From an uncultured Acidimicrobiia bacterium (GTDB lineage: Bacteria; Acidobacteriota; Terriglobia; Versatilivoradales; Versatilivoraceae): DNA of 64,000 bases. Shown in pieces: positions 11,048 through 29,507 of the stretch. The notes beneath the pieces are model-generated. The model saw nothing but the letters and a program-made list of their open reading frames with translations, did not search any database and was not told the origin of the DNA. The position numbers were made by a program, and so were the translations under genes. Where the stretch lies: positions 837 to 64,836 of the forward strand of contig CAWBTP010000020.1 of the NCBI GenBank assembly GCA_963791795.1. The letters run 5' to 3'. Positions within the stretch are counted from its first letter, which is position 1. Each line of letters starts with the position of its first letter.

Positions 11048-11113
11048 GAACGCAGCAGTGCGAGCGCGACGGTGAGATCAAGATCGGCGGCACCGGCCCA
11101 ACCACTGCTTCCA

Positions 11114-11164
11114 GCCGACCCGCCGCCAAAAGCAGCGGCGGGCGGCTGAACCGTAACGTTCGGC
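11114..11164 (+). other. attC-like site (short class): GCCGACC hairpin ... GTTCGGC
   Basis: The hairpin CCGCCGCCAAAAGCAGCGGCGGGCGG is followed by GGCTGAACCGTAACGTTCGGC. It shares an AAAAGCAGCGGCG..GGCTGA consensus with sites at 20770 and 27721. Confidence 0.4.
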
Positions 11165-11360
11165 CGCACATCACTCGTTCATCCTTCACCAGCGCATAAA
11201 TCAGTCGCATGCAGTGCAAGTGTCCTCTCTTGCACAATACTGTGATGCTCTGGATGTGTTTTACATTTCAAGACTATTGCCTAAAATGATGCCTTCATGT
11301 GACCGCGTGCATGAGTCTGAAGCGGTGCATGGTTAGCCGGTAGGAACTGTTACAGGGGTA

Positions 11361-12320
11361 ATGCACATGAACAGCCGTTATCTTGTCGATCCTGAGCTTG
11401 TTGCGTTTCTCGACCTGATCCCTTCCACCTCACTCACGGCGGAAAGTCTGGCCACAAACCGGGCAAGAGCCGCCGCGATGGTAGCGAGCCTGTCGGTGCC
11501 CGACTATCCCAACCTTACAGTACGCGAACGGCACGTACCTGGTCCCGCAGGCGCGCCGGATGTCCGTATTTTGCTGTACCAACCGACGCTGACAACACAG
11601 TCGACAGCTGGCCTGCTTTGGCTCCACGGTGGCGGCTATGTCGGCGGCAATGTGGATCTTGAGGACGTACGCGCCCGGGCGATGGCAGCCGAACTTGGCT
11701 GCGTCATGGTGTCGGTGGACTACCGCTTGGCACCCGAGACACCCTTTCCCGGTCCCGTTGAGGATTGCTACGCCGTGCTGCGTTGGCTCCACGCCAATGC
11801 TGGAGAGCTGGGCGTCGACACCGGCCGACTGGCGGTTGGTGGTGGAAGCGCCGGTGGTGGTCTTGCTGCAGCGCTCGCGCTGCTTGCCCGCGACCGAGGT
11901 GAGATACCGCTCGTCTTTCAGGTGCTCAGCGCCCCCATGCTCGATGATCGCACCGTCACGCTCGAGCCGCCGCACCCGTACACCGGTGAATTCATCTGGA
12001 CGCGCGAATCAAACCGCTTCGGCTGGACAGCGCTGCTCGGCCAGGAGCCGGGGAGCGACGGCATATCGCCCTATGCGGCGGCCGCTCGAGCGGAAAATGT
12101 GGCGCACCTCCCACCCGCCTTCATCGCGGTGGGCGCACTCGATCTGTTTCTTGAGGAGAACATGGAGTATGCCCGGCGACTCATCCACGCTGGCGTGCCA
12201 ACAGAGCTTCATGTGTACCCAAGGGCGTACCATGGGTTTCAGATGGTTCCTTCTGCCTGGGTGACACAGGCTGTCGCACGCGAGCAGATCAGCGCTATTC
12301 GGCGGGCACTAAAGTTGTAA
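11361..12320 (+). CDS. alpha/beta hydrolase, esterase/lipase (HSL-like family)
   Basis: HGGGY oxyanion motif, GGSAGG nucleophile elbow, conserved His near the C-terminus. Confidence 0.85.
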   Translation: MHMNSRYLVDPELVAFLDLIPSTSLTAESLATNRARAAAMVASLSVPDYPNLTVRERHVPGPAGAPDVRILLYQPTLTTQSTAGLLWLHGGGYVGGNVDLEDVRARAMAAELGCVMVSVDYRLAPETPFPGPVEDCYAVLRWLHANAGELGVDTGRLAVGGGSAGGGLAAALALLARDRGEIPLVFQVLSAPMLDDRTVTLEPPHPYTGEFIWTRESNRFGWTALLGQEPGSDGISPYAAAARAENVAHLPPAFIAVGALDLFLEENMEYARRLIHAGVPTELHVYPRAYHGFQMVPSAWVTQAVAREQISAIRRALKL

Positions 12321-12591
12321 GGGAGGGGATCATCCATAGAAGTGAGCTGAGGTACGACATGTTCAACCGGCTGGCGCTATCGGCATCCTGATAAGTATCG
12401 GACAATGACTGACGAAACCTGCTTGAAACGCCTCGTTTTACCCAGCCTGATCCAACATCGGCTGCGGCCGAAGCGCAGGGCGATAAGCGGCGCGCGAGAT
12501 AAGATTGAGCCGCTAGGCGGCGCTTGATGCAAGTTACAGCGAGTGCTGAAGCAAGCCATCGCTGCTGAGCAACAGCGCGGTTCGGTGCGAG

Positions 12592-12718
12592 GCCCAACAA
12601 CCGGCTGAAGCTGACCCGGCTTACGCGTTCTTTTTGGAAACGGCAGCGAGACTTTCCAAGGTTCTCTCCGGCTCTCCAGCAGTGGGAAGCCGGGCAGCTT
12701 AGCCGAGAGACGTTAGGC
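12592..12718 (+). other. attC-like site (long class, 127 bp): GCCCAAC ... GTTAGGC
   Basis: Core-site pair, with a long imperfect stem (CCGGCTGAAGCTGACCCGGCTTACGCG pairs with CAGCAGTGGGAAGCCGGGCAGCTTAGCCG) and a central GGAAAC...TTTCC hairpin. The next ATG is at 12726. Confidence 0.7.
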
Positions 12719-12725
12719 ATCGCTT

Positions 12726-13376
12726 ATGGCAGCGTCGCAAGAGCTTCACCCCACGGCGGCAATGCTTCTTCCATACGAAGAGCGCCTCAAAGACGACATG
12801 TTGTACTTCAGAAAACTGGGCGTGAAGTACGAAGCAGACGCTCTCATTGACCTGCTAAAGCGCGAAAAGCCAAAGTCGGCCATGCCAGTCGCTTGCCACA
12901 GTTTGGCCGACCTGAACGCAAAGCAGGCTATTCCAGTCCTTAAGACACTAGCTGACTATCCAGTACAGGACGTAAAGGCAACGTCAGTGTTAGCGGTGGC
13001 TAGACTAGCCGGAAGCGACGAGACACCGTGGCTCGTTGAATGCCTTTCTAAGAAAAGGACGTTAAAGGGCTATGTGCTATGGGCTCTAGCCGCGGTCGGA
13101 GATCCTGCGGCATACGGGGCCGTGAAAACATGGTTTGAGAAGCATCTTCGGAAACTCGAGAGAAATCCGAATAGTGATTCGCTCGGAAATGTGGTGTTTG
13201 CCGTTGCGTACCTTGAACAAATGACAGAACACCGTCCCGAAGTTGTAGGGTTGCTTGATCGCTTCAAACTTGTGGCGCCAAAGCTCCCGCGAAACATTCC
13301 GTCAGAACTTGGCCACTTCACACGAACGTTTGCAGACTGGAAAAACAAGCATGGCCCGGGGGAGAGCGATGTCTAA
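12726..13376 (+). CDS. hypothetical protein (helical-repeat-like; lower GC than neighbours); cassette
   Basis: 216-aa intact ORF. Its stop codon TAA lies inside the inverse core GTCTAAC of the following attC-like site. Confidence 0.65.
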   Translation: MAASQELHPTAAMLLPYEERLKDDMLYFRKLGVKYEADALIDLLKREKPKSAMPVACHSLADLNAKQAIPVLKTLADYPVQDVKATSVLAVARLAGSDETPWLVECLSKKRTLKGYVLWALAAVGDPAAYGAVKTWFEKHLRKLERNPNSDSLGNVVFAVAYLEQMTEHRPEVVGLLDRFKLVAPKLPRNIPSELGHFTRTFADWKNKHGPGESDV

Positions 13377-13499
13377 CGAAAGGCTTGCAGCGAACCCAGG
13401 TTGACGCGTTTTTTTTGGAAACGGCGGTAGAATTCTTCCAAACACGCTCTGCGTCCCCAGCAGTGGGAGGCGGGGCGGCTTAGCTGGGAATCGTTAAGC
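13371..13499 (+). other. attC-like site (long class): GTCTAAC ... GTTAAGC
   Basis: Near-identical to the 12592 element. The stop codon is embedded in RYYYAAC. The next ATG is at 13523 with an SD. Confidence 0.7.
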
Positions 13500-13522
13500 G
13501 GACGAAAGGCAGAAGGACGTCG

Positions 13523-14380
13523 ATGACAGATCCAATCAGACGCAAGATACTGAAAACGGGAGCCGCGGCGACGGTGATGGCCGCTGCGCCGCGCGTGTTT
13601 GCGCAGCAGACTAGGAAAGGGGGAGCTGCCATGTCCTTCTACGAAAAAGGCGCCGTTCGCATCCACTATGAGGAGACCGGCTCCGGCTTCCCATTAATGC
13701 TCATCGCCGGCGGGGGGCTGAACTCGACGATCTCCGGCCTGACCAATCCCTTCAACCCGATCGAGGAGTTCAAAGGAGAGTACCGCTGCATCGCGTCGGA
13801 CCTGCGCAACGCCAACAGCGGCCAGTCCTCCGGCCCGCTCGAGATCGACCGGCCGTGGGATGCCTATACCGATGACCACCTCGGTCTGATGGATCACCTG
13901 GGCATCGAGAAGTTCATGGTGCTGGGCTTCTGCATTGGCGGCCCTTTCATTTGGAACCTCCTCCGGCGGGCGCCGAATCGTGTGGTCGCCGCCGTGCTGG
14001 CGCAGCCCAGCGGGTCCCGTCCGGAGATGCGCGATCTTTTCTACGACAACAATATGAAGGGTTGGGGTCCGGTGCTGGTAAAGCGCCGGCCCGAGATCTC
14101 GATGGAGATGGTCGACAAGTTTCTGACCAAGATGTACCGCACCAACCCCGATTTCGTCTTCACCGTGACACGCGACTTCGTGCGCAACTGCCAGACGCCA
14201 GTACTGATCCTCCCGGACGATATTCCGGCGCATCCGTACGCTGTCGCCATGGAGGCCGCAATGCTCGCGCCGAAGGCCGAAGTGAGCATGTTCCCGTGGA
14301 AGGAGCCCAAAGAACGGATTCCATTGGCGGTACGCCAGATACGTTCCTTCCTCCGGGCGCATCGGCCTGCCCCTGCTTAG
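13523..14380 (+). CDS. alpha/beta-fold hydrolase with twin-arginine signal peptide
   Basis: N-terminal RRKILKTGAAATVMAAAPRVFA, then an alpha/beta hydrolase core. Confidence 0.8.
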   Translation: MTDPIRRKILKTGAAATVMAAAPRVFAQQTRKGGAAMSFYEKGAVRIHYEETGSGFPLMLIAGGGLNSTISGLTNPFNPIEEFKGEYRCIASDLRNANSGQSSGPLEIDRPWDAYTDDHLGLMDHLGIEKFMVLGFCIGGPFIWNLLRRAPNRVVAAVLAQPSGSRPEMRDLFYDNNMKGWGPVLVKRRPEISMEMVDKFLTKMYRTNPDFVFTVTRDFVRNCQTPVLILPDDIPAHPYAVAMEAAMLAPKAEVSMFPWKEPKERIPLAVRQIRSFLRAHRPAPA

Positions 14381-14443
14381 ACGGCGGCGTCTATCAGACA
14401 AGGCGGCTGACGTCCAGTGACCGCGTCAGACCTTGCTGACGCC

Positions 14444-14490
14444 GTCTAACCTTGCGTTGCACCGACGGCGGCCGGTGCGGAACGTTAGGC
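14444..14490 (+). other. attC-like site (short): GTCTAAC ... GTTAGGC, preceded by an inverted repeat TTAGACGGCGGCGTC / GACGCCGTCTAA
   Basis: Canonical core pair. The next ATG (14527) is 37 bp downstream with a GAGAGGA SD. Confidence 0.5.
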
Positions 14491-14526
14491 AGCAAACACG
14501 ATATGGCGACGCCTCAGAGAGGATCA

Positions 14527-15389
14527 TGAAATATCTAAGTAAAGTAATCGTGATCGCCTGCGCTATTGTGGTGCTGCTTGGATCAACCCGTGTGGCGGCT
14601 CAGGTAAGCGTTGATCTCGAGAACAGGTATTCCAACGTCGGTGCAATCATGGTCTGGCGCGTCGACAGTTCCGGAACGCCCCTGCAGTTACTCGGCTTCG
14701 TAAGCGGCACCCTGATTCGTGATCGGGTAATGGTGACTGCCGGTCACTTCACGGCTCCGGCCAAGGCACTCGGCGAATTGCCACCTACCCTTCGATTTTT
14801 TGCGAGTTTCAGTCCGACGGATGCGAAGGACCCGAAGAACTGGATTCCAGTGGTCTGGCAAGCTACGCACCCATCGATGCCGCCCTGCCCACCGCCGCCT
14901 CAGTGCGATCCAACCGACGAAATCCTGGTCGCTCCACTGGAGCCTGGCATTGCCGACGTCGGACTAGTCTTCCTAGAATACTCGCCCAAGGGAGTCGAGC
15001 CCGCCCGTTTCGCTGGGCAAGCCAGGCTCGAGAGAGCCGAAGGAGCGCAAACAACAATCGTGGGATACGGTACAACGACACCGCGGAACCGGAACGCGCC
15101 GTTCGATATAGCGACATGGGATGGGAAGCGGCGCGTCAGAACTTCGATATTGCGTAGAGTTGTCGACGAGACGTGGGCGCTCTGGTCGATACCCAGCTAC
15201 GTTTGCTCCGGTGATTCCGGTGGTGGAATCTTTCTGAAACCAAGTGCCGATCGCGCTGAGGAGCTGATTGCCAACGTGAGCGACGGCGGCCTCGACTGTC
15301 GTCGTCATAACAACAACAATCGCTTGGATACCCGCGCCATCCAGACCTGGATCGACGACACAATAAGGCAACAACTCGGAAGGATTTGA
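14527..15389 (+). CDS. secreted trypsin-like (S1 family) serine protease
   Basis: Signal peptide MKYLSKVIVIACAIVVLLG. Contains TAGHF and GDSGGG motifs. Confidence 0.8.
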
Positions 15390-15495
15390 GTACGCCGCAT
15401 CGACTGCTCGTTGCACGCGAGCGCGGCGGCTGGAGAATACGGGGATTCAACGTCAGCTCGTCGTTGCTAGCCAACGGGTTCCGCGACGTCAGAGC

Positions 15496-15641
15496 GCCTA
15501 ACAACCGCGTCGGGCAGGCGCACTTCGTGTGCTCGACGAGCAAAGTCGGGGCGCCTTTGCGAACGCTCTCGTGAGCCTGCAGGACAAGCATTCCTGACCG
15601 ACGATGACTTCGGTTGCAGTGATCAGAGGTCTTAGTTCGAA
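15496..15641 (+). other. putative attC-like site: GCCTAAC ... GTTCGAA
   Basis: A canonical inverse core opens the site. The GTTCGAA end overlaps the SD 9 bp before the ATG at 15650. Confidence 0.4.
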
Positions 15642-15649
15642 GGAGCCAC

Positions 15650-16891
15650 ATGCCCAGCCGTCGAACCTTCTTGTCGCTTCTTGCAGGTGGTGCTGTGGCC
15701 CCGCATTTAGCTTTCGCGCAAGGGCGCCCACGTCGGTTGGCGTTGTATGCCAATGTTGGGCCGGTGCTCACGCACTACGACGTTGATCTCTCCAACGCGG
15801 AATTGGTCAAACGTGATTCGGTGACATTGCCTGCTGGCGTGCAGTACTGCTGGCCGCATCGCAACCGGCGCTATATATATGTGGCTTCAAGCAGCAGCCC
15901 TGCGGGCAATGTGCAGATCGGCACCGCACACCACGTGACGGCGTTCAAGATCGATCCCGCCACGGGTGCGCTCAATCAGATTGGCGATCCGGTGCGCCTG
16001 CCGGTGCGGCCGATCCACATGACACTCGACAACGAATCGCAGCACATACTGGTGGCGTTCAACAACCCCAGTTCATTGCGGGTGTATCGGATTCACGAGG
16101 ATTTCACCCCTGGGGAAGAGGTGCTGCAAGGCACGATGGATGCTGGCATCTACGCGCATCAAGTACGCGTGACGCCAGACAGCCGCCATGTGGTGCTGGT
16201 GACGCGTGGCAACGAAGGCACGGCGCAAAGGCCCGAGGACCCGGGCGCGCTGATGGTGTTCGACTACAAGAACGGCGTGCTCTCCAACGAATACAAGATC
16301 GCACCCAACGGCGGGCGTGGCTATGGCCCGCGCCATTTGGATTTTCATCCGACGAAGCCGTGGATGTACGTGTTGATCGAAACGCAGAACCAGATCCACA
16401 TGCACCGCATGCAGGATGGCAAACCGCTACCGGAAGTCGTGTTCAACAGGACCACACTACTGGAGCCCAACAACATCCGCTCGCGCCAGGCGGCGAGCGC
16501 GGTGCACGTGCATCCGAATGGGCGTTTTGTGTACGGCGCAAACCGCTCGCAAGATGTGGTGGATTTCAATGGAAAGAAGGTCTACAAGGGCGGCGAGAAC
16601 AGCATCGTCTTATACGCAATCAGCCAGGAGACCGGCGAACCGACCCTAATCCAGCACATCGAAACGCAAAAGATCCATCCGCGCACGTTCCACATGGATC
16701 CCAGCGGGCGCATGCTGGTGGCGCAGCACAACCTGCCGGTGGATGCGCGCGATGGCGACACTGTGCGCACCGTGTCGGCAGGGCTGTCGGTGTTCCGCAT
16801 GAACCAGGACGGCAGGCTCACTGTTGCACGCACTTACGACATCGACGTCGGTGACAAGATCATGTGGTGGATGGGGATGGTGCCGCTGTAA
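15650..16891 (+). CDS. lactonase (7-bladed beta-propeller, 6-phosphogluconolactonase-like) with Tat-type signal
   Basis: N-terminal RRTFLSLLAGGAVAPHLAFA, with beta-propeller lactonase family similarity throughout. Confidence 0.75.
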   Translation: MPSRRTFLSLLAGGAVAPHLAFAQGRPRRLALYANVGPVLTHYDVDLSNAELVKRDSVTLPAGVQYCWPHRNRRYIYVASSSSPAGNVQIGTAHHVTAFKIDPATGALNQIGDPVRLPVRPIHMTLDNESQHILVAFNNPSSLRVYRIHEDFTPGEEVLQGTMDAGIYAHQVRVTPDSRHVVLVTRGNEGTAQRPEDPGALMVFDYKNGVLSNEYKIAPNGGRGYGPRHLDFHPTKPWMYVLIETQNQIHMHRMQDGKPLPEVVFNRTTLLEPNNIRSRQAASAVHVHPNGRFVYGANRSQDVVDFNGKKVYKGGENSIVLYAISQETGEPTLIQHIETQKIHPRTFHMDPSGRMLVAQHNLPVDARDGDTVRTVSAGLSVFRMNQDGRLTVARTYDIDVGDKIMWWMGMVPL

Positions 16892-17002
16892 AGACTAAGG
16901 AGCGCCAGGTGTATGAGACTCGATCGCAGCGGCTGCTGTGGCGCCCGAACGGAGGCGGCTTTCGCGCCGGTTCTCACGGCGGTGAATACGGGTTCCATGT
17001 CG

Positions 17003-17130
17003 GCCGAACCTTCAGCCGAAGCTGCCCCGGCTTAATCGTTCTTTTTGGAAACGGCAGTGAAGATTTAGAAGGTTGTGCTCTGCCTCCACAGCAGTGGGAA
17101 GCCGGGCAGCTTAGCCGTGAGTCGTTAGGC
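17003..17130 (+). other. attC-like site (long class): GCCGAAC ... GTTAGGC
   Basis: Third near-identical copy of the 127-bp element. Confidence 0.65.
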
Positions 17131-17359
17131 CGGCAACGGACATCGATGTGGTCGGTTGCGGCGACGATATCCCACAGGCATGGGTCGGCCGAGCAATGAG
17201 ACTTGTGCTGGTCCCAGCCTTGGTGACCCGTATATGACCCGTGCGCCGGTCGCGGAAGATAGTGCAGGCCGGCTCGAACTGCTGCCGGCCTTCGCCATGG
17301 CTCTCATGCGGTACGGCACGTGAGGGCAGTACGATCCGAATCTTCCAAGGAGTATCGCG

Positions 17360-19393
17360 ATGTTTCGTGCCCTTCAGCGCGTTTTTCTGTGTGTCGTCTT
17401 CGGCGGATCTGCGGCCATCGTCCACGCGCAGACGCCAATCGTGGCCGCGGATCTCTACAAGCTTCGCTCCGTTGGCAACGTGGCGTTCTCCCCGGACGCG
17501 ACGAAGATCGCCTACGTGATTAGCAGCAATCCGACCGAGGGCCGGCCGTACTCGCAGTTATGGATCATGGATCTGACGAGCTCTCGTACAATGCGGGTTG
17601 GTGACGAGCAGAGTCGCGGATCGTCTCCGGTCTGGTCGCCCGACGGCACGCGCATCGCTTTCCAGGGGCGAATCGGGAGCGGCGAGAGCGGCGTGATCGT
17701 CGTGCGCGCCGACGGCACCGGCCCGAAGTTCATCGCGCCGAAACTCGGAACGAACAGCGCCGCGATCACGATGGAAGGCAACGGCATCGCCTGGTCGCCG
17801 GACGGCGGTCGGCTTGCCATCGTACATGCGACGCCCGGTCCCGAGACCGCCAACGCGGACGGCGACCCGATGGTCATCACGCGTTATCTCTACAAGCCGA
17901 CCGCGTCGGAAGGCAACACGCGGTTCAACGACAACCGGCGCCTGCACATCTTCATCGCGGACCTTGCGACGAAGCAGGTGCGTCAGCTCACGGACGGCAT
18001 CTACTCCGAGCACTCCATCGATTGGTCGCCCGTATCGGACGAGATCGCCTTTGTCTCGAACCGCGAGCCCGACCCGGACTTCGTCTTCAACAACGATCTC
18101 TTCGCGGTGAAGGTCTCGGATGGTTCGATTCGCCGCATCACCGCGACCGAGAACGCCGAGTATCGCCCGCGCTGGTCACCGGACGGAAAGACGATTGCCT
18201 ACCAGGCCACCCGACGCGGCATCACCGACCTCGAAACGACGATGGAGGACACGCATGTGTGGGCGGTGAATGCCAATGGCACAAACCGTCGCGAGGTCGG
18301 AGCGTCCGTGGACAATCGCCAGGGGGCGCCGGAGTGGACGCGCGACGGCTCGTCGGTCTACGCAACCGTGCAGGAGCACGGCCACGTCCGCCTTTATCGG
18401 CTGAACGTCAGCAGCGCACAGGCGGCAGTTGTCATCAACGATCCGGGTAGGGTCGGCTCGTTCAGCATTGGGCGGACGGGGCAGATCGCGTATGCGTACT
18501 CAAGCCCGTCGGATCTCGCACAGTTGCATGTGCGAAACGCGCAGGGTGCCCCGCCTGCCCGCGCGCTGACCGACCTCAACGCAGACGTGCTTCGCGGCAA
18601 GGCCATTGCGCCGATGGAGTCGTTCACGTTCGTGAGCAACGACCTGAAGCACGAAGTCGAGGCATGGCTCGTAAAGCCCGTCGGCCTCACCACAACTTCG
18701 TCTCATCCGCTCATTGTCGACATCCATGGTGGTCCGCACGGTGCGCAGGGACCGGCGTTCAACCTTCAGAACCAGGTCTATGCCGGACTCGGATGGGCGG
18801 TGCTGATGGTGAACTACCGTGGGTCGACCGGCTACGGACAGGCGTGGTCCGACGCGGTGTTCCGCGATCAGAACGGAGACGAAGCGCAGGACGTGCTCTA
18901 TGGCGTCAACGCCGCCATCCGGCGCTACACGTGGATCGACCGCAACCGTCTCGGAGTCGAGGGGGGCAGTTACGGCGGCCAGCTCTCTGCGTGGCTCGTC
19001 ACTATCACGAACATCTTCAAGGCGGCGATCCCGCGCTGGCCGATCATCAACCTCGTCTCCTACAACTACATGACGTACTACCCGATGTACGAAGAGATGG
19101 AATTCGGGGCGAAGGTCCACACCGCTGACTGGCTCGATCAGCTCTGGCGCCGGTCAGCGATCCGCTATGTCAACGGGGTGAAGACGCCGACGATGCTGAT
19201 GCACGGGGAGAACGACAACGACGTGCCGATTGCCGAGTCCGAGCAGTTCTACATGGGACTGAAGGACGCTGGTGTCGAGACGGTGATGGTGCGCTACCCG
19301 CGCGAAGGACACGGGCTGAGCGAACCGAAGCACACGGTGGACATGATCACACGGTCTATCTCTTGGTACCAGAAGCACTTTCCGAGTCGTTGA
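17360..19393 (+). CDS. S9 family peptidase (prolyl oligopeptidase/acylaminoacyl-peptidase) with N-terminal beta-propeller
   Basis: 677 aa with a signal peptide and repeated WSPDG motifs. The C-terminal domain carries GGSYGG. Confidence 0.9.
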   Translation: MFRALQRVFLCVVFGGSAAIVHAQTPIVAADLYKLRSVGNVAFSPDATKIAYVISSNPTEGRPYSQLWIMDLTSSRTMRVGDEQSRGSSPVWSPDGTRIAFQGRIGSGESGVIVVRADGTGPKFIAPKLGTNSAAITMEGNGIAWSPDGGRLAIVHATPGPETANADGDPMVITRYLYKPTASEGNTRFNDNRRLHIFIADLATKQVRQLTDGIYSEHSIDWSPVSDEIAFVSNREPDPDFVFNNDLFAVKVSDGSIRRITATENAEYRPRWSPDGKTIAYQATRRGITDLETTMEDTHVWAVNANGTNRREVGASVDNRQGAPEWTRDGSSVYATVQEHGHVRLYRLNVSSAQAAVVINDPGRVGSFSIGRTGQIAYAYSSPSDLAQLHVRNAQGAPPARALTDLNADVLRGKAIAPMESFTFVSNDLKHEVEAWLVKPVGLTTTSSHPLIVDIHGGPHGAQGPAFNLQNQVYAGLGWAVLMVNYRGSTGYGQAWSDAVFRDQNGDEAQDVLYGVNAAIRRYTWIDRNRLGVEGGSYGGQLSAWLVTITNIFKAAIPRWPIINLVSYNYMTYYPMYEEMEFGAKVHTADWLDQLWRRSAIRYVNGVKTPTMLMHGENDNDVPIAESEQFYMGLKDAGVETVMVRYPREGHGLSEPKHTVDMITRSISWYQKHFPSR

Positions 19394-19412
19394 GCGCGAA
19401 TCGCCGACCGCG

Positions 19413-19449
19413 TATTGGCAGTACGGGTGGCTGAGCTTGGTCGTTAGGC
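19413..19449 (+). other. mini attC-like hairpin ending GGTCGTTAGGC
   Basis: A 37-bp stem (CGCCGACC pairs with GGTCGTTAGGCG) lies directly after the stop codon. It may be a degenerate site. Confidence 0.3.
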
Positions 19450-19649
19450 GCATGAAGACCCCTGTGAAAATCGACTCGGGCATGACTGAGGCTCTTGTGA
19501 GTCAGGTTGACTGGCAACTACCTCCCTGAGTCAAGAGATGCGCTGCAGCGAACGGCGCGGGCCGTCGCGGTTCCAATTATCACGCTTCGTGCCCGCCGTC
19601 TTTGAGCTTGGGTTGTCGGGCCCATTCAAAACGTACGGGGAGGTGGATA

Positions 19650-20110
19650 ATGCGACGATTTTCGGTACTGCTGGTCCTTCATGTTCTCGCCGCGACAGTT
19701 CATGCGCAGCATGCCCCATCGAGTCTTATGACAGCAATTCAGGGTTACGTAGGAAAGAAAAATCATCAAGAACGACCTCCGTTCCGACACGCTCTGACCG
19801 ATCTCAACGCCGACGGGCAGGCTGACGCTATCGTTCTGTTGTTGGGTTCGAGCTGGTGTGGGTCTGGTGGGTGTAACATGCTCGTATTTCGTGGTACCGG
19901 TTCACGTTGGTTTCTGCAAGTACCATCACCAACGAACCGATTAGGGTGTCGCCTGAAAACACGCAAGGCTGGAAGACTCTGATCGTGTATTCGAAAGAAA
20001 GGGGTGATGTCCTGATGCAGTTCGACGGAACCCACTATCCGTTGAATCCGTCGCTGCAATCGAAAGCTACGACTGGTCAGGTGGAAGCCGCTGAAGTTCT
20101 GCTGAAGTAG
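19650..20110 (+). CDS. small secreted hypothetical protein, apparently frameshifted near 19905
   Basis: Signal peptide MRRFSVLLVLHVLAATVHA. The protein continues in a second frame (19907-20110) that ends at a stop inside the next attC region. Confidence 0.35.
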
Positions 20111-20128
20111 TGAACCTGTCCCAAGCTG

Positions 20129-20255
20129 TGCCTAACCCGCGGCTGAAGTTGAGCCGGCTGATGCGTTCTTCTTGGAAACAGTTGCGAAAGTCTCCAAAGT
20201 TCTCTCCGGCTCGACAGCAGTGGGAAGCCGGCCAGCTTAGCCGTGAGTCGTTCGA
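20129..20255 (+). other. attC-like site (long class): GCCTAAC ... GTTCGAC
   Basis: Fourth copy of the 127-bp element, with a canonical inverse core. Confidence 0.65.
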
Positions 20256-20326
20256 CCTCTCTCGGCACTTCGTCTCCATGATATCCTAGCAACAAAGATC
20301 TCCCCTAGTTGGGTTGGAGAATTGGC

Positions 20327-20533
20327 ATGAACTTCACAATCGAGCTTGAGCAAGAGATCGATGGTCGCTGGATAGCGGAAATCCCGGAACTTCGGGGAGC
20401 TTTGGTCTACGGGCAGACCCGGCAAGAGGCAATTGCTAAGGGACAGGCTCTTGCGCTCCGGGCCCTTGCTGAGCAGCTCGAGCATAACGAAGCAAGCTCC
20501 GATCTTGTACACGTTACCTTCAACGCTGCATGA
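20327..20533 (+). CDS. hicB: type II antitoxin HicB family
   Basis: MNFTIELEQEIDGRWIAEIPELRGALVYGQTRQEAIAKGQALA is the HicB/UPF0150 signature. Confidence 0.85.
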   Translation: MNFTIELEQEIDGRWIAEIPELRGALVYGQTRQEAIAKGQALALRALAEQLEHNEASSDLVHVTFNAA

Positions 20534-20742
20534 GCCAGTGGCCAGCGACAAGAGCCAAACGAGTTCTTGCGGCACTTCTCCGCATTGGTTGGACGATCAA
20601 ACGCCAATCGGGCTCTCACCGGACGCTGGCGCGTGTGGGCTGGCCTGACATGGTGTTTGCTTTCCATGACAGCGACGAGATCGGTCCTCGGATGTTGGCT
20701 AGGATTGCCAAACTGTCTGGATTGAAGCCTGAAGACCTTTAG
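20530..20742 (+). CDS. hicA: type II toxin HicA family (YcfA-like mRNA interferase)
   Basis: 70 aa: ...RAKRVLAALLRIGWTIKRQSGSHRTLAR... It overlaps hicB by 4 bp. Confidence 0.85.
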   Translation: MSQWPATRAKRVLAALLRIGWTIKRQSGSHRTLARVGWPDMVFAFHDSDEIGPRMLARIAKLSGLKPEDL

Positions 20743-20769
20743 CGATTCCTTCAAGTTCCCTAAGGGGAG

Positions 20770-20835
20770 GCCGAACCCTGCGCTGCAGCCGACGCCGCCG
20801 AAAAACAGCGGGGGGCTGATGCCTGACCGTTAGGC
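20770..20835 (+). other. attC-like site (short class): GCCGAAC ... GTTAGGC
   Basis: 66 bp. A GTG start with an SD follows 17 bp later. Confidence 0.5.
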
Positions 20836-20851
20836 GGAAAGAGGCCCAATC

Positions 20852-21037
20852 GTGTGGCGACCGTACGCTCACGGAACGACTGTCGGCCAGCGCGGAACCG
20901 AGGAAGGTGTCATCGACCGCGACGAGCAGCACGATGGGGGCGCGCGAATCACGCTCGAGCGCGACTGCCGCAACATCCCGTTCGCGGTCACGTGCGCCAT
21001 TCTAAGGTTGGTCGTCCACACTCAGTACGTTGGCTGA
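20852..21037 (+). CDS. small hypothetical ORF (61 aa, GTG start)
   Basis: Positioned exactly like a cassette first ORF (SD GGAAAGAGG). No similarity recognised. Confidence 0.25.
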   Translation: MWRPYAHGTTVGQRGTEEGVIDRDEQHDGGARITLERDCRNIPFAVTCAILRLVVHTQYVG

Positions 21038-21199
21038 GCACCGTGCGCTGGAGGGCGAACTGCCGGCACTGGAGAATGGGTGGCGTGAGGCGGAGGAAAT
21101 CGCTGGAATCGCCAATTCGCTTGCGTGCCGGCACGCGTCGAAGAATTCCTCGCGCGTCACCGCCGTGAATTCCCGAGAAAGCGATCAAGAGCCTTCCGA

Positions 21200-22465
21200 A
21201 TGCCGAATAAGTTGGTATCTTCGATTTCCGTGGCGCAACCAAGCCGACTTTCCGCTATCGGTCCAGCGATTCTGCTGACCGCGACCAGCGTGGGCGCGGG
21301 CGATATCCTCACGGGCAGCCTCGCCGGCGCGGAGGCTGGCATGGCGGCGCTCTGGGCGGTCCCTGCCGGCGTCATCCTCAAATGGACGCTCACCGAAGGC
21401 ATCGCCCGCTGGCAGATGGCGACCGGCACGACGCTGCTCGAAGGGTGGGTGACACGGCTCGGGCGCTGGATTCAGTGGGTGTTCTTTGGCTATCTGCTGC
21501 TGTTCTCGCTGGTGACCGGCGGCATGCTTGCGAGCGCTTGCGGAGTTGCGGGTGCCGCGCTGATTCCGCTCGGCGAACCGCAGACTTCGCGTTTCGTTTG
21601 GGGCGCGATGCACTCGCTGGCCGGCCTTGCGCTGATCTGGATCGGCGGATACGCGCTCCTGAAGAGGATCTTGGCGGGCTGCGTCGGCGCCATGTTCGTC
21701 ACGGTCACGCTGACTGCGTTCCTGCTCGCGCCGGATTGGGCGGCTGTTGGCCGCGGGCTGACTCCTTCGCTCCCGCCAGAGGGCGCAGGTTGGATCATCG
21801 GGCTAATCGGCGCGATTGGCGGCACGATGGCGCTGATCAGCTACGGCTACTGGATCCGCGAGGAGGGCCGTACGGGCGAAGAAGGGTTGCGAGCCTGCCG
21901 CTTTGAGCTGGTTCTGTCTTATGCCGTGATCGGGCTCTTTGGGCTCGCGGTAGTGATCATCGGCTCGCGCACGTCGGTTCGCGGTCAGGGAAATCAGCTC
22001 GCGCTGCTGCTCGCAGATCAGCTCGCAACAAATCTCGGACAGAGCGGCAAATGGATCTTCCTCGTTGGATTCTGGGCGGCGGTGTTCTCGGCGCTGCTTG
22101 GCGTATGGCAGAGTCTGCCTTACCTGTTCACCGATTTCCTGCTGCTGCGGAAGGGCTCTGGAGTGGCTTCGTTGCCGCAGGGAGCGGCGGAGCGATCGCG
22201 ATCTTACCGCGGCTATCTCGCTTGCCTCGCGACCGTACCGCTGTTTCTGTTGCGTTGGCCGGTGCAGGAGTTACAGCTCGCGTTCGGACTGACGGGTGCG
22301 ATGCTTCTGCCGTTGCTCGCACTGACGTTGCTGATCATGAATAATCGCACCGCGTGGGTCGGCGACCGCTTGCGTGCGACCCTTGCATTGAATCTGGTGC
22401 TCGCAGCGGCGCTCGGATTCTTCGCATTCACCGCCGTGCGCGAGGTGATGCGCCTTGCCGGCTGA
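21200..22465 (+). CDS. mntH: Nramp-family divalent metal transporter
   Basis: Multi-TM protein with GPAILLTATSVGAGDILTGS and MPNKLVSS... start. It has Nramp consensus regions. Confidence 0.8.
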   Translation: MPNKLVSSISVAQPSRLSAIGPAILLTATSVGAGDILTGSLAGAEAGMAALWAVPAGVILKWTLTEGIARWQMATGTTLLEGWVTRLGRWIQWVFFGYLLLFSLVTGGMLASACGVAGAALIPLGEPQTSRFVWGAMHSLAGLALIWIGGYALLKRILAGCVGAMFVTVTLTAFLLAPDWAAVGRGLTPSLPPEGAGWIIGLIGAIGGTMALISYGYWIREEGRTGEEGLRACRFELVLSYAVIGLFGLAVVIIGSRTSVRGQGNQLALLLADQLATNLGQSGKWIFLVGFWAAVFSALLGVWQSLPYLFTDFLLLRKGSGVASLPQGAAERSRSYRGYLACLATVPLFLLRWPVQELQLAFGLTGAMLLPLLALTLLIMNNRTAWVGDRLRATLALNLVLAAALGFFAFTAVREVMRLAG

Positions 22466-23423
22466 GGAGACTGATGAAATGCCCAACATCGTGATACCCG
22501 ACGACTATCCAGTCGTCATGGGATCGAGTCCATCATTCCTGAAGTGGCGACAAAGCACGCCGGCCACATACTTCGATACGCTGCCCGGATCGGAAGACGG
22601 GCTGCTCGCGCGCATCCGCGACGCCGAGATCGTGATCAACGTTCGCTCGTCGACCCGATTCCCCGAGAGCGTTTTCGCAGCGTGTCCCAAGCTGAAGCTG
22701 CTGTCGCTATGGGGCACGGGCACGGACAACGTCGACCTCGCCGCAGCGAAGCGCCACCGCGTCACGGTGACGAACACGCCGGGAGTATCAGCGGCCTCGA
22801 TCGCGGAGCATTCCCTGATGCTGGCGCTCGCCGTCGCCCGCCGTGTAGTCGAGATTCACAACGGCGTTGTGGCGGGCGGTTGGCCGCGTGGCCGGTCTGT
22901 AGAGCTTCAGGGCAAGACGCTGGGCGTGATCGGACTCGGTGCGATCGGACGGAGATTCGCGCGTCTCGGACAGGGAATCGGCATGCGAGTGATTGCATGG
23001 ACGATGCATCCGAACCCTGCGCTCGGGTTCGAATTGGTGGAGCTCGACGATCTGCTGGGCAGGAGCGACGTAATCAGTCTTCACTTGCGGCTATCACCAC
23101 AGACCGCAGGTTTTCTCGGGCGCGATCAGTTTGCTTTGATGAAGCCCGGTGCGATTCTGATCAACACGGCGCGTGGACCGATCGTCGATGAGGCTGCTTT
23201 GCTCGACGCTCTCAGCGAGCGCCGACTCGCGGGTGCGGGCCTCGATGTCTTCGACGTCGAGCCTTTACCCGCAGGCCATCCGCTGACCAAGCTCGACAAC
23301 GTGGTCCTGACTTCGCACTGTGCGGGAATCACGCCGGAGGCGCTCGAAGCCGGCCTTGCGCTGGCGATCGAAAACGTCGTCGGCTTCCTGAACGGCAATC
23401 CAACGAACGTGGTTACACTGTAA
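22455..23423 (+). CDS. D-isomer-specific 2-hydroxyacid dehydrogenase (glyoxylate/hydroxypyruvate reductase family)
   Basis: GVIGLGAIGRRFARLG NAD-binding motif and catalytic R/E/H region. Confidence 0.9.
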   Translation: MPAEETDEMPNIVIPDDYPVVMGSSPSFLKWRQSTPATYFDTLPGSEDGLLARIRDAEIVINVRSSTRFPESVFAACPKLKLLSLWGTGTDNVDLAAAKRHRVTVTNTPGVSAASIAEHSLMLALAVARRVVEIHNGVVAGGWPRGRSVELQGKTLGVIGLGAIGRRFARLGQGIGMRVIAWTMHPNPALGFELVELDDLLGRSDVISLHLRLSPQTAGFLGRDQFALMKPGAILINTARGPIVDEAALLDALSERRLAGAGLDVFDVEPLPAGHPLTKLDNVVLTSHCAGITPEALEAGLALAIENVVGFLNGNPTNVVTL

Positions 23424-23505
23424 TGATGAAACCGACGCGTGCTCGCGAAGACATAACCCAATCAGCGTTGGGTCTACTCTTTCCTGCTGCGACGGATGAC
23501 GAGCC

Positions 23506-23633
23506 GCTTAACAAGCCGGCTGAAGCTGGCCCGGTTTATGCATTTTGTTTGGAAACGCCGCAGGAACTCTCCAAAGTTCCCTCCGACTCCCCGGCAGTGG
23601 GAAACCGGGCAGCTTAGCCGTGAGGCGTTAGGA
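23506..23633 (+). other. attC-like site (long class): GCTTAAC ... GTTAGGA
   Basis: Fifth copy of the 127-bp element. The next ATG is at 23670 with an AAGGAGA SD. Confidence 0.65.
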
Positions 23634-23669
23634 GTTCTCTCCCGGCCCCCTCTGTGCAAGGAGAATTCT

Positions 23670-24137
23670 ATGTTTAACTATAAGTATCAGCTTGAGCATA
23701 TCTTCTCATTCGGCGCTGCACTCGACACCCCTCCCGAAGCCATTGGGCCAGTGGCCGAGGGCATTCGGGTCAATTTCTACTGTCAAGGCGGTGAGGTAAC
23801 AGGCCCAAAACTGCAAGGGAGCTGCCGCTCCGTCGGGGGCGACTGGCTCACGGTTCGCACGGACGGGGTTGCGATCCTTGATGTTCGCACAACCCTTGAA
23901 AGCCATGATGGGGCACTGATTGCCATCACTTACTCCGGGGTCACGGATTTAGGCAATGACGGCTATCAGCGCTTTCTTGCTGGGGACCTGCCTGCGCGAC
24001 TGACCCTACATGTGGTTCCCAGGTGTCAAACAGCGCATCCTGGATATCTGTGGCTCAATCGGGTGCAATGCTTAGGGATTGGGGAAGTCGACTTGGGGCG
24101 CTCGCATGTCAGCTATGATGTCTATGCCGTGCGCTAG
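23670..24137 (+). CDS. DUF3237 family protein
   Basis: 155 aa with ...[29 protein letters not shown]... typical of DUF3237. Confidence 0.75.
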
Positions 24138-24169
24138 TTTGACGGGGTCTTGAGGGTCCCGGCCGCTCC

Positions 24170-24229
24170 TAACCAACTGGCTCGAGCCGACCGCGAAAAG
24201 CACCCGGCGGCTCATCGGGGCCATTAGGC
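24170..24229 (+). other. possible short attC-like site: CCTAAC ... ATTAGGC
   Basis: Matches the short-class internal consensus (GAGCCGACCGCGAAAAGCACCCGGCGGCTCA). A second weak candidate lies at ~24393-24453 (GCTAAC...CTAGGC). Confidence 0.3.
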
Positions 24230-24518
24230 ATCTTGTTGCGGAAACCACGATGGATCTCGCACTTCGAGTGAACACACAGGGAGGTACGACAGTCGTCCGA
24301 CTCCGGATGAAGGATGGCATCCACTCTCGCAGATCTCTGGCATGCTTCTACATCTCGGGTTCAAAGTCTCCGGCCAGTACCTTCCCTGAAGAGGCTAACC
24401 CGGTGCTCCAGCCGGTGCCCGCCAAGAGCTGCGGGCACGCTCAGCTCTGATCGCTAGGCGACTGAGCGCACACCGAGAATTTCCACGCAGTGAGCAACCA
24501 TCGAACTAGGAGAACAAC

Positions 24519-25292: not shown

Positions 25293-25381
25293 ATTGTTCC
25301 TGCCAAACCAGCGGCTGAAGGTGCCCCGCCTCCTACTGTGGGTGATGACGAGGATAACTCTAGCAGGCTCAACAGGACTCT

Positions 25382-26755: not shown

Positions 26756-27043
26756 ATGAGAAAGGAATCTGTCCACTACCTTAAGGAATACAGCAGCCTT
26801 TTAGCCTCGCTCGATCAGCTCGGTTTTGAGCTGACCGCGTACTCTCAGGAGCCGGAGGCGTTCGGAAACTTCTACGCGGACTTCAGGAAGGGAAACCTTC
26901 TGTTCCGAATTCTTCGCGACAGGTCACAGCTGCTCGTCGAGGGTGAAAGAAAGGAGCTTGAGCCATTCGGGCTGTGGCAAGCTTTCGACGACGCAACCGT
27001 GTTTGAAAGAAAACTTCTCGCATGGCTTCGCAGCAAGGTATAA
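26756..27043 (+). CDS. hypothetical protein (95 aa, low GC)
   Basis: Intact ORF with no recognisable domain. Confidence 0.45.
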   Translation: MRKESVHYLKEYSSLLASLDQLGFELTAYSQEPEAFGNFYADFRKGNLLFRILRDRSQLLVEGERKELEPFGLWQAFDDATVFERKLLAWLRSKV

Positions 27044-27110
27044 CCCATCCAAGCACCGCGCGCAGACGCACGCGCGGGTTGGTGACTTAATTTTAGTTGG
27101 ACTGAATAAC

Positions 27111-27710
27111 ATGGACACATCCACCCGAGTTCCGACGCTCGAAGAGTTCTTGACCTTCTGCCAGGCAGCGTGCGAGTTCCTCATCCGCGAGTATGGGTTC
27201 GTGCGACTGCCCTCACCCTTGGAGTACAACCAACACAGCGTATGCTTTCGAAAGGGTGATTTCGGCGTTGACGTCTATGGTGAGAACTACGGCGAGACGG
27301 CATCGTGCGATCTCGTGCGAGGTGGGGATCGGTTGTACCTCGGCCTGTTTGTGCCCGTAGCACAACGCGAGGCGCCAAGGCGTGAGGGGCCTCGGCCCGG
27401 GCAGCTCGCTCAGCTTCAAGACATTGCCACCCGGCTGAAGCTTTATGCGGCGGACTTCTTGCGCGGCGATTCCAACCGCTTTGACTCGGCTCTCGTGGAA
27501 TGGAGGCCCGTCGCTCAACCTCGCCAAGTGACGGCAGCGCAATGCCTGGAACGCCAGCGACAACAAGCTGTCACGGCCGCGGGCCACGCAAGCGGGCGGA
27601 CTATGCTGCAGTCGTGCGCCTGCTTCAGCCACACGCAGAAGCGTTGTCACCGCACCAGCGGCGGATGCTTGAGGTTGCGCGCAACCGGTTGGCGGACGAA
27701 GCGGGCTAGC
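27111..27710 (+). CDS. hypothetical protein, possible C-terminal frameshift
   Basis: MDTSTRVPTLEEFLTFCQAACEFLIREYGFV... The C-terminal part is better in the frame of 27500-27709, which ends just before the next attC-like site. Confidence 0.4.
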
Positions 27711-27720
27711 ACCGCATCCA

Positions 27721-27774
27721 GCCGAGCCACGTCACCAAAAGCAGCGGCGTGCGGCTGATGCCTGATCGTTAGCC
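27721..27774 (+). other. attC-like site (short class): GCCGAGC ... GTTAGCC
   Basis: AAAAGCAGCGGCGTGCGGCTGA consensus. Lies immediately after the stop codon. Confidence 0.4.
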
Positions 27775-27880: not shown

Positions 27881-29305
27881 ATGCAGGCGCCCTCCCAGCC
27901 AACGCGCGCGCTCCTCAGTATTCTCATTGTTGCGGTCTCCGCCATCGCGTTTCTCGTGTCGACCGGCGTGGGTGTCGTGTGGCCTCTTGCATGGCTCGCG
28001 CCGATTCCGGTTCTCGTGCTTTCCGTTCACCGTTCCTGGCGAGCAGCCGCCATTGTTGCCTTCACCGCGTCGCTGCTCGGTGACCTCACTCTGGCTCGCA
28101 CATACGGGCCGGGCGCCGTGCTCATCTTCGGAATTCCTCCGGCGATGGCATTTGCCGCAGCGACGCTGGCAGCCCGCGCCGCCGCGCGACGAATGGCGGC
28201 TTGGCTGGCGGTCTTCGCGTTTCCAACGGTGCTGACGTCCTACGAGTTCCTGTTCTCGCTCATCTCGCCCAATGGCACCTTCTGGAGCCTTGGCTACTCG
28301 CAAACCGATTTTCTCCCGCTGCTGCAAGTCGTCTCGCTGACGGGCCTCTGGGGCGTCGTTTTTGTCCTGACGCTCCTCCCTTCGGCAGCCGCGCTCGCCC
28401 TGTATCGCCGCTCCATGTCAACGTTGATGCCGGCGCTCGCGATTCTGCTGCTGGTTCTGGGTTATGGAACATGGCGTTTGCTTCGCGCTCCCGGGCCATC
28501 CATCGTGCGTGCTGGGCTGGCCGCAACGGACCGAGGCCTTCCCAGCGTCGATCACCACCGATCCAGCGATGGCGCTCAGCGTGGCCGCCGCGTACGCGGA
28601 CCGCGTCGCTCACTTGGCAGCCCGGGGCGCGCAGATTATCGTGTTCCCAGAAAAAATGGTCGGAGTAACGTCAGACAGTGCGGACGCCGTGGTGAAGTTC
28701 TCAGCGACGCCGCTCGCGCGGCACAGGCCACGGTCATCGCCGGCCTGAGCCGCAACGGAGTCCAGCCCAGACGCAACATCGCCCTGGTCATCTCTCAAGA
28801 CGGCACGCTCGTGCTGCAGTACGAGAAGCGTTACCTGGTCCCGATGATCGAAACGACCTTCGCCAGCGGCAACGCGCTCGGTGTGTTCGCCGGTCCGGAG
28901 GCACAGTGGGGTGTCGCCATCTGCAAGGACCTCGACTTCCCAGCTTGGTCACGCGCCTACGGCCGGCGCGGCGTACGCTTTTTGGCAGTGCCCGCATGGG
29001 ACTTTGTCCGGGACGCCCGCATGCACTCGCGGATGGCGGTCATGCGTGGCGTCGAGAACGGATTTGCCATCGCTCGTTCGGCCCAAGAGGGTCTCGTGAC
29101 GGTCAGCGATGCCTACGGCCGCATCCTGGTTGAACAATCCAGCGCTCGCGATCCGATGGAGGTTCAGACCATTGCAGCCGGCCCTGGAGCGACGTTCTAC
29201 ACCCACTACGGAGACTGGTTCGGTTGGGTAAACGTCCTGATGATGGGCGGACTCGTCGCGGGAACGATCTGGCCAAATCGTACGGATTCGAAGAGCTCCG
29301 GCTAA
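27881..29305 (+). pseudogene. apolipoprotein N-acyltransferase (Lnt)-like: N-terminal TM domain plus CN-hydrolase domain, two frameshifts
   Basis: The N-terminal multi-TM region and the C-terminal nitrilase-like region (VAICKDLDF...) are in one frame. The middle part (AQIIVFPEKMVG...) is in another frame (28464-28748). Confidence 0.55.
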
Positions 29306-29441: not shown

Positions 29442-29507
29442 GGCCAACCCGCCGCGCAGCCGACGTTGCCGAAAGACAGCAGCGCGGCTGATGCTTGGCC
29501 GTTGGGC
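29442..29507 (+). other. attC-like site (short class): GCCAAC ... GTTGGGC
   Basis: 66 bp with a central hairpin. The next ATG (~29537) follows an AAGGAA SD. Confidence 0.5.

Follow-up and report, generated by a model that had tools for sequence, protein, structure and literature searches.

The hicB-hicA gene pair

The stretch of DNA analyzed here, called the window throughout, comprises 64,000 nucleotides of contig CAWBTP010000020.1 (assembly GCA_963791795.1), from an uncultured bacterium placed in the family Versatilivoraceae of the Acidobacteriota. About 20 kb into the window lie two small genes on the + strand, hicB and hicA, whose products are predicted to be the antitoxin and the toxin of a HicBA toxin-antitoxin (TA) module. 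The pair is bounded on both sides by attC sites and stands within a longer array of such sites. This report concerns the identity of the two genes, their carriage as a single integron cassette, and the role that the cassette may play in the array. The coordinates of the features are collected in Table 1.

An earlier examination of this DNA from its letters alone, referred to below as the sequence-only reading, had described two open reading frames (ORFs) that overlap by 4 bp, and both frames and the overlap were read in the sequence exactly as claimed. The shared bases are an ATGA at 20530 to 20533 that contains the stop of hicB and the start of hicA, and this overlap suggests that the two genes may be translationally coupled. 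An alternative start for hicB, a TTG at 20309, lies upstream of the ATG at 20327; the ATG was favored because all 31 homologs compared for this purpose begin with MNFTIELEQE. Among 162 related loci from many phyla, hicA was found directly 3' of hicB in 141 (87%), and the named relatives of the two proteins come from Acidobacteriota and Planctomycetota. Ratios of nonsynonymous to synonymous substitution rates (dN/dS), determined against cassette-borne relatives, were 0.04 to 0.11 for hicB and 0.03 for hicA, and values this low indicate strong purifying selection, by which both genes are maintained. In a strain variant of the window, locus L001, the HicA and HicB proteins are identical to those of the window.

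The organization of the pair is that of Class 2 hicBA, which was defined by Gerdes (2024, mBio, PMC10865869) as having the antitoxin gene first, a HicB of 63 to 103 codons, and no recognizable DNA-binding domain, and which is among the most prevalent contexts of HicA. Here hicB precedes hicA, has 68 codons, and encodes what appears in the structural model as a single HicB N-terminal domain; the length of HicA (70 amino acids, typically 60 to 85) and the gene overlap also agree. The window module differs from those of the survey in being bounded by attC sites, the text of the survey being without the word "integron," and nothing essential differs otherwise.

Identity of the toxin and the antitoxin

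HicA was recognized directly by its sequence. It matched the PF07927 hidden Markov model (HMM), the search that the sequence-only reading had proposed for the toxin, with an E value of 2.6e-11 and a score of 43.9 bits (gathering cutoff, 27), and the alignment covered 57 of the 58 profile positions. Searches of the PDB were far weaker: phmmer with the single HicA sequence returned nothing at an E value of 0.01 or below, and a profile of the HicA family gave only sub-significant matches. Since sequence and profile searches of the PDB were weak for both HicA and HicB, comparison of folds was used instead. The AlphaFold2 (AF2) model of HicA, with a predicted local distance difference test (pLDDT) value of 93.3, has an alpha-beta-beta-beta-alpha fold like that of a double-stranded RNA-binding domain, with helices at residues 9 to 18 and 53 to 63 and strands at 22 to 27, 30 to 34, and 41 to 44. 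The six best PDB folds for this model were all HicA proteins (1whz, 6g26_E/F, 4p78_C, 5yrz_B, and 4c26), with template modeling (TM) scores of 0.64 to 0.84; the two 6g26 chains gave 0.74 to 0.84.

The residues expected of an active toxin are also in place. All positions that are invariant in the family are kept in the window HicA, and the segment G28-S29-H30, invariant among 21 homologs, aligns with G26-S27-H28 of Yersinia pestis HicA3, the SGSH segment of 4P78 chain C. The glycine and the histidine are needed for HicA toxicity and RNase activity, as described for G26 and H28 of Y. pestis HicA3 and for G22 and H24 of BpsHicA (PMC11594946). The conserved catalytic residues that the sequence-only reading had singled out are thus present, G28 and H30 matching the toxicity-essential G26 and H28.

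With the Pfam models for HicB below their cutoffs, the identity of this protein rests on fold, family, and synteny. Its 573 homologs are uniformly about 68 amino acids long, so the window protein is not a truncation, and they are designated HicB family antitoxin at NCBI and JGI. The AF2 model (pLDDT, 89.4) has the order b1-b2-b3-a1-b4, with strands at residues 2 to 9, 15 to 18, 26 to 29, and 64 to 67 and a helix at 32 to 52. This is a partial RNase H-like fold that corresponds to the HicB N-terminal domain alone, without a DNA-binding domain. The top nine PDB matches in a Foldseek search with the model were all HicB or UPF0150 proteins (1wv8, 6g1c, 3k6q, 6u0i, 6hpb_B, and 2dsy), at probabilities of 0.92 to 1.0 and with a TM score of 0.74 to 6g1c.

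Both folds therefore match those of the solved HicAB systems of Escherichia coli (6HPB), Burkholderia pseudomallei (6G26), Y. pestis (HicA3B3, 4P78), and Streptococcus pneumoniae (5YRZ), at TM scores of 0.6 to 0.84. In those systems, however, HicB carries a C-terminal helix-turn-helix or ribbon-helix-helix domain that autoregulates the operon, whereas the window HicB does not, and sequence identity is only 16 to 29%. The single-domain Thermus proteins TTHA1013 and TTHA0281 likewise are without a DNA-binding domain.

The flanking attC sites and the limits of the cassette

The sequence-only reading had also placed the pair between two attC-like sites. The downstream site, at 20770 to 20835, was exact, and the upstream site had been set one base too early, at 20129 to 20255; the base at 20129 is T, and the site runs from 20130 to 20256. 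Sites were sought across the window with a scanner that required RYYNAAC...GTTNRRY boxes, complementarity of the boxes at no fewer than five of seven positions, and an arm duplex at least as stable as -18 kcal/mol. It returned 16 sites, whereas dinucleotide shuffles averaged 1.05 and reached 4 at most; both sites flanking hicBA passed, and most of the sites were concentrated between 6.8 and 24.1 kb. An earlier scanner without the box signature was unspecific (64 matches versus about 35 in shuffles) and was tightened for that reason.

The upstream site has an arm duplex of -36.3 kcal/mol and belongs to a family of 127-bp repeats, whose profile it matched with an nhmmer E value of 5e-39. Five same-strand copies of this family, beginning at 12592, 13371, 17003, 20130, and 23506, were recovered at E values of 1e-28 to 1e-39. 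The downstream site, with box complementarity of 6/7 and an arm duplex of -19.4 kcal/mol, is kept in the strain variant L001. It is one of the shorter sites, which have the same end boxes around unrelated interiors and begin at 6815, 7304, 7997, 8773, 11096, 14444, 20770, and 29442; its L'' core, CAGCCGAC, is common to the short sites at 7304, 11096, and 29442.

Over 13 attC sites, bulged bases were distributed very unevenly, 21 of them falling in the 5' arm of the + strand and 4 in the 3' arm. The typical pattern is two single bases 6 to 7 nucleotides apart, as in TT[C]CAGCCG[A]CCC at 11096, where brackets mark the bulges. Members of the long family have CGGCT[G]AAGCTG[A]CCC, and the site at 20130 has CGGCT[G]AAGTTG[A]GCC, with two bulges in the 5' arm. 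The site at 20770 to 20835 carries two extra bases in its 5' arm. In these predicted hairpins, the one-sided bulges match the arrangement of extrahelical bases by which the recombinogenic bottom strand of attC is marked.

RNAalifold analysis of seven copies of the 127-bp family gave a stem of 18 bp in which the two bulges fall on the bottom-strand 3' arm, and the consensus hairpin shows compensatory changes on both sides in 8 of 29 pairs. When the arm-trimmed short and long sites of the window were folded together, only the R-box pairs were obtained because the L stems are in different registers, and a scan against Rfam gave no attC-type family. From the boxes, the bulges, the shuffle calibration, and the comparisons presented below, we conclude that both flanking repeats are genuine attC sites.

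The limits of the hicBA cassette were set by the integron crossover rule, under which the exchange falls at G|TT in R'. The R' box of the upstream site, GTTCGAC, has two non-consensus bases, and the crossover rule accounts for this because its TTCGAC belongs to the hicBA cassette. Indeed, the TTCGAC at the 5' end of the cassette is complementary to the R'' box of the cassette's own attC site, GCCGAAC, at 6/7 positions, with a G.T wobble at the mismatched position in the bottom strand.

Copies of the cassette in other arrays

Related loci bear out these limits. In L002 (Logan SRR19175045), HicB is 97% identical to that of the window, and the DNA is 90% identical from window position 20248, two bases before R'. 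Upstream of this breakpoint there is a different 69-nucleotide attC site (1717 to 1785) with different neighbors, and a neighboring cassette encodes a CAP12/PCTIR TIR-domain protein. In L003 (JGI 3300082540), a hicB-hicA pair with 79% identity lies between a short attC site (5739 to 5800) and a 127-bp-family attC site (6325 to 6451). Within this copy, at 5874 to 6300, hicA is frameshifted and hicB is intact, a case of toxin-first decay, and the cassette is followed by genes for the type I restriction-modification proteins HsdM and HsdS and for an Abi_C protein. The claim that the pair is one cassette is thus borne out by its attC boundaries, by comparative breakpoints at R', and by copies behind other attC sites.

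The strain variant L001 (ENA ERZ25039469, contig_52315) is 98.6% identical to the window over 13 kb, from 11157 to 24299, with hicBA inside this block. The similarity starts at a G|TTCGGC (window position 11158), and the sequences upstream are unrelated. Compared with L001, the window has an extra block at about 26.7 to 29.5 kb, which ends at the attC site at 29442 to 29507 and contains ORFs at 26943 to 27758 and 27881 to 29305, the latter encoding a CN_hydrolase/LNT-like protein; L001 in turn has 236 extra bp at window position 24299. Nearly identical strains that differ by whole cassettes at attC boundaries are what integrase-mediated turnover produces, and the comparison of the window with L001 shows directly that cassettes have turned over recently.

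Integron integrases were found within 1 to 3 kb of three other hicBA relatives, as an intact gene or as remnants. L088 has a full-length integrase gene near its hicBA relative (4715 to 5692; TIGR02249, 431 bits versus a cutoff of 265). L084 has an integrase remnant (3 to 421) upstream of hicBA and on the same strand, fused in frame to an SgcJ/EcaC-like segment, and L115 has a frameshifted integrase gene (6183 to 6574).

Leader of the cassette

Between the upstream crossover point and hicB there is an extended -10-like element of the form TGnTATCYT and a ribosome-binding site (RBS). Both are kept in five copies of the cassette, those of the window, L001, L002, L003, and L084, and the remaining leader and the upstream attC site vary among the five. 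More distant cassette-borne relatives have TGCTAnAGT just before the start codon. This pattern suggests that the hicBA cassette may be transcribed from its own extended -10 promoter. TA cassettes of integrons have been described as promoter-containing, and those of Vibrio cholerae stand amid the mostly promoterless cassettes of a sedentary array (PMC13108822).

The surrounding array

The hicBA cassette is in the sense orientation of the array listed in Table 1. By Pfam assignment, the cargo near hicBA in the window consists of hydrolases, transporters, and dehydrogenases. Two neighboring cassettes are unusually large: one of about 3.1 kb (17131 to 20250) carries an S9 peptidase gene and a small ORF, and one of about 2.8 kb (20830 to 23627) carries a 61-codon ORF and genes for an Nramp transporter and a 2-hydroxyacid dehydrogenase. 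The scanner may have missed internal attC sites in both.

Table 1. Features of the hicBA cassette and of the array around it (positions in the window)
Feature	Position	Strand	Remarks
hicBA gene cassette	20251-20829	+	579 bp; from TT of upstream R' to G of own R'
hicB	20327-20533	+	ATG at 20327, TGA ending at 20533; 68 aa
hicA	20530-20742	+	ATG at 20530, TAG ending at 20742; 70 aa; HicA mRNA interferase family
Extended -10-like element TGATATCCT	20279-20287	+	TGnTATCYT; candidate cassette-internal promoter
hicB RBS TTGGAGAA	20314-20321	+	GGAG, ending 7 nt ahead of hicB ATG
attC of preceding cassette	20130-20256	+	127 nt; R'' GCCTAAC 20130-20136, R' GTTCGAC 20250-20256; crossover G20250/T20251
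attC of hicBA cassette	20770-20835	+	66 nt; R'' GCCGAAC, L'' GCTGCAGCCGACGCCGC, L' GCGGGGGGCTGATGC, R' GTTAGGC 20829-20835
Cassette array	6815-29507	+	At least 13 attC sites; all sites and all cargo genes on + strand
attC	6815-6877	+	
attC	7304-7364	+	
attC	7997-8093	+	
attC	8773-8837	+	
attC	11096-11164	+	
attC	12592-12718	+	127-bp family
attC	13371-13499	+	127-bp family
attC	14444-14490	+	
attC	17003-17130	+	127-bp family
attC	23506-23633	+	127-bp family
attC, truncated copy of 127-bp family	25302-25374	+	Full-length copy at orthologous position in L001, 15012-15138
attC	29442-29507	+	

Several further features were noted in and around the array. About 4.5 kb upstream of the first recognized attC site there is an IS1182-family transposase gene (693 to 2252, - strand; NF033551, 401 bits versus a cutoff of 270), and this element may have disrupted or displaced an integron platform. 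The coding sequences of some genes are distributed over two or three frames, namely, those for a 2-hydroxyacid dehydrogenase (2594 to 3623) and an SBP_bac_11 solute-binding protein (5957 to 6748). The ORF directly upstream of hicBA (19602 to 20110) is also split and is an intact 155-codon gene in L001. The three are either pseudogenes in this strain or the result of assembly indels. Among the flanking chromosomal genes are those for PdxA, PfkB, and a CarboxypepD_reg-OMP beta-barrel protein; taken together with the named relatives of HicA and HicB, they suggest that the organism is of a soil or freshwater lineage.

Just past the end of the array, at 30571 to 30740 (+ strand), there is a cyclic di-AMP (ydaO/yuaA) riboswitch (RF00379, 86.4 bits versus a cutoff of 38), about 190 nucleotides upstream of the gene for a 713-residue SPFH/Band 7-domain protein (30930 to 33071). 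An inverted repeat at 3655 to 3735, formed by TGTCATTCCCGCGAAAGCGGGAATCCAG and its reverse complement (28 nucleotides, 93% complementary, with a 25-nucleotide spacer), looks like a repetitive extragenic palindrome (REP) or a miniature inverted-repeat transposable element (MITE) and is unrelated to the attC sites. Far from the array, an isolated but strong attC-like hairpin (48091 to 48163; GCTCAAC...GTTCGGC, arm duplex of -35.7 kcal/mol) is found within a Beta_elim_lyase gene on the opposite strand and is probably a chance match or an unrelated structure.

Weighing the case for a functional cassette-borne module

A number of results count against a functional HicBA module carried by an integron, and they concern the antitoxin, the promoter, the integrase, and the wider distribution of the pair. 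HicB missed the gathering cutoffs of all Pfam models; only PF21748 (UPF0150-like) was seen at all, with an E value of 0.089 and 13.2 bits versus a cutoff of 27.3, and there was no match in NCBIfam. The two models named for HicB in the sequence-only reading, PF15919 and PF05534, do not match the window protein, so this part of its proposal failed; PF15919 is carried by one HicB homolog (P0073). A profile of the HicB family searched against the PDB gave non-significant matches, to TTHA0281 (E value, 0.21) and to B. pseudomallei HicB (E value, 0.95). The Foldseek E values were modest as well (0.012 to 0.3), the domain being small. Moreover, with a HicB that is without a DNA-binding domain, the usual autoregulation cannot apply. 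A scan for sigma-70 consensus promoters and terminators from 20050 to 20950 called nothing, and the TGnTATCYT element escaped it because there is no -35 element.

No integron integrase was found in the window, either as a tyrosine recombinase in a Pfam scan of the major ORFs or by tblastn with an IntI1 probe over the whole window, for which the best E value was 1.2. The same probe recovered IntI in L088, L084, and L115, and the match in L088 was confirmed with TIGR02249. The window therefore holds no intI adjoining the array, as a complete integron would have. IntegronFinder designates as a CALIN (an attC-site cluster that lacks integron integrases) any group of two or more same-strand attC sites separated by less than 4 kb and without intI in the vicinity (PMC4889954), and the window has at least 13 such sites between 6815 and 29507, the widest gap being about 3.9 kb. 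As in other CALINs, the cargo is unrelated to antibiotic resistance; the number of sites is larger than in most, 83% of CALINs having fewer than six. As far as the window shows, we provisionally regard the array as CALIN-type, with 6.8 kb visible upstream of the first site; the contig continues, and an integrase could lie beyond the window. The integron interpretation of the sequence-only reading thus stands with respect to a real array of same-strand attC sites and cassettes and has to be narrowed to a CALIN-type array with respect to the integrase.

Finally, attC flanks were detected by the strict scanner in only about 10% of related hicBA loci, a figure that is a lower bound, as more were found by visual inspection. 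Judged from these loci, the hicBA lineage resides mostly outside integrons, persists without them, and has been captured repeatedly as a cassette. Setting these points beside the toxin match, the two folds, the conserved gene order, the signature of selection, and the attC boundaries, we put the probability that the locus is a single integron cassette with a functional HicBA TA module at about 0.8.

Possible roles of the module

By analogy with the HicA family, free HicA would be a ribosome-independent RNase that arrests growth, and HicB would neutralize it by packing its helix a1 on the HicA beta-sheet and masking the catalytic histidine (PMC10865869, PMC11594946). HicB, as in the family generally, would be the more labile partner. 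If the cassette were excised by an integrase, or removed in a larger deletion, the supply of HicB would stop and HicA would be left to act, and cells losing this part of the array would be penalized, an effect described as cassette loss killing or stabilization of the post-segregational type. For V. cholerae, it has been shown experimentally that TA cassettes couple the rate of cassette excision to cell death, and such cassettes are enriched in large chromosomal integrons (PMC13108822). Extending the Vibrio work to the window, hicBA may stabilize the array in which it sits, a proposition that we consider evenly balanced.

The likeness to the TA cassettes of the V. cholerae superintegron (ParDE, HigBA, RelBE, and Phd-Doc; PMC13108822) is that of a two-gene, attC-bounded, excisable cassette amid a large array. 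However, HicA is not in the toxin set named there, 19 TA cassettes are spread over about 180 cassettes in V. cholerae compared with one among roughly 13 to 15 here, and the stabilizing role is experimental there and drawn by analogy here. A closer precedent for the gene pair is the integron of Treponema denticola, in which HicAB (TDE1838/TDE1837) is the fourth cassette; it is also found in an oral-metagenome cassette, SSU27 (PMC4909258). In both T. denticola and the window, a type II TA pair forms one cassette of a chromosomal array, and the authors of that study read it as array-stabilizing. The Treponema HicB ORF is longer (405 nucleotides, about 134 amino acids, versus 68 amino acids), the host belongs to another lineage, the attC sites of the two arrays are not related, and the Treponema array has an integrase whereas the window has none. 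HicA and HicB are also among the TA classes in a metagenome-wide catalog of integron genes (PMC7370490).

The array itself argues for caution with regard to stabilization. Excision, the trigger of cassette loss killing, would depend on an integrase encoded elsewhere, since none is present in the window. Of the 63 small ORFs that were left unassigned from 6.8 to 29.6 kb, that of HicA alone matches a toxin family, and hicBA is thus the sole recognizable TA module in an array at least 23 kb long. Cassette content, furthermore, differs between strains on both sides of hicBA. With one TA module in such a length and strain differences on both sides of it, any stabilizing effect is local at best.

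Two other functions deserve attention. The module may serve primarily in anti-phage defense of the abortive-infection type, with HicA released on infection and stabilization of the array incidental. Gerdes has argued that HicA modules, including those of Classes 1 and 2, serve mainly in phage defense (PMC10865869), defense functions are over-represented among integron cassettes (PMC7370490), and the relatives in L002 and L003 adjoin defense-type genes, for the TIR-domain protein in the former and for HsdM/HsdS and Abi_C in the latter. PADLOC models, however, recognize neither HicB nor HicA, and the neighboring cassettes of the window are concerned with metabolism and transport rather than defense. 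This function is plausible and compatible with array stabilization; as the primary one, we rate it on the unlikely side.

Equally doubtful in our view is the possibility that hicBA is a purely selfish addiction module which, once captured as a cassette, secures its own retention and gives the array no measurable protection. The roughly 90% of related loci without attC flanks point to a lineage that spreads independently of integrons, and both the solitary TA module in at least 23 kb and the gain and loss of cassettes on both sides of it between two strains that are 98.6% identical would fit such a module. Against this stands the coupling of excision rate to death by the TA cassettes of V. cholerae (PMC13108822), and the block common to both strains (11157 to 24299) contains hicBA, which is consistent with local protection and is not proof of it.

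A broader and still more speculative idea, to which we give a low probability, draws on both the copies and their neighbors. Compact Class 2 hicBA may be a recurrent type of cassette, self-promoted from the conserved extended -10 element of its leader, that moves between unrelated arrays of soil and freshwater phyla together with defense cassettes (TIR, type I restriction-modification, and Abi). Such cassettes would be anti-phage modules, with an expression logic unlike that of characterized HicAB, rather than simply array stabilizers.

That the pair is an inactive remnant, with an attenuated toxin or unexpressed genes carried passively, is very unlikely. Several interrupted genes are present in the window, the ORF that directly precedes hicBA among them, and from the frameshifted hicA of L003 it is clear that this cassette does decay. 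Nevertheless, both ORFs are intact in the window, the proteins are identical in L001, dN/dS is 0.03 to 0.11, and the Gly/His pair and all family-invariant positions of HicA are kept, so the evidence of selection and of intact ORFs contradicts a pair of pseudogenes and that possibility was rejected. Least credible of all is that the flanking repeats are REP- or MITE-like palindromes with the TA pair merely lying between two of them: the window has no integron integrase or recognizable attI, and some cassettes are of unusual size (two genes and up to 3.1 kb), but we rejected this explanation because structural and comparative evidence contradicts it, namely, canonical RYYYAAC/GTTRRRY boxes with an unpaired spacer, unrelated interiors and repeat lengths of 47 to 129 nucleotides, placement of all repeats on one strand directly 3' of + strand ORFs, strand-specific bulges 6 to 7 nucleotides apart, breakpoints between strains and between contigs at G|TT of R', and relatives of the hicBA cassette that adjoin verified integron integrases.

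Significance

HicAB integron cassettes, Class 2 hicBA modules, and TA-mediated stabilization of integrons are all known already, and the locus described here is an ordinary further example of them. Its value lies in being a clean, well-bounded environmental TA cassette that comes with natural comparators: a strain variant, copies in other arrays, and one copy whose toxin has decayed. The hicBA cassette is thus a convenient test case for whether the cassette loss killing of Vibrio extends to non-proteobacterial, integrase-distal arrays, and equally for how HicBA is regulated when HicB is without a DNA-binding domain.

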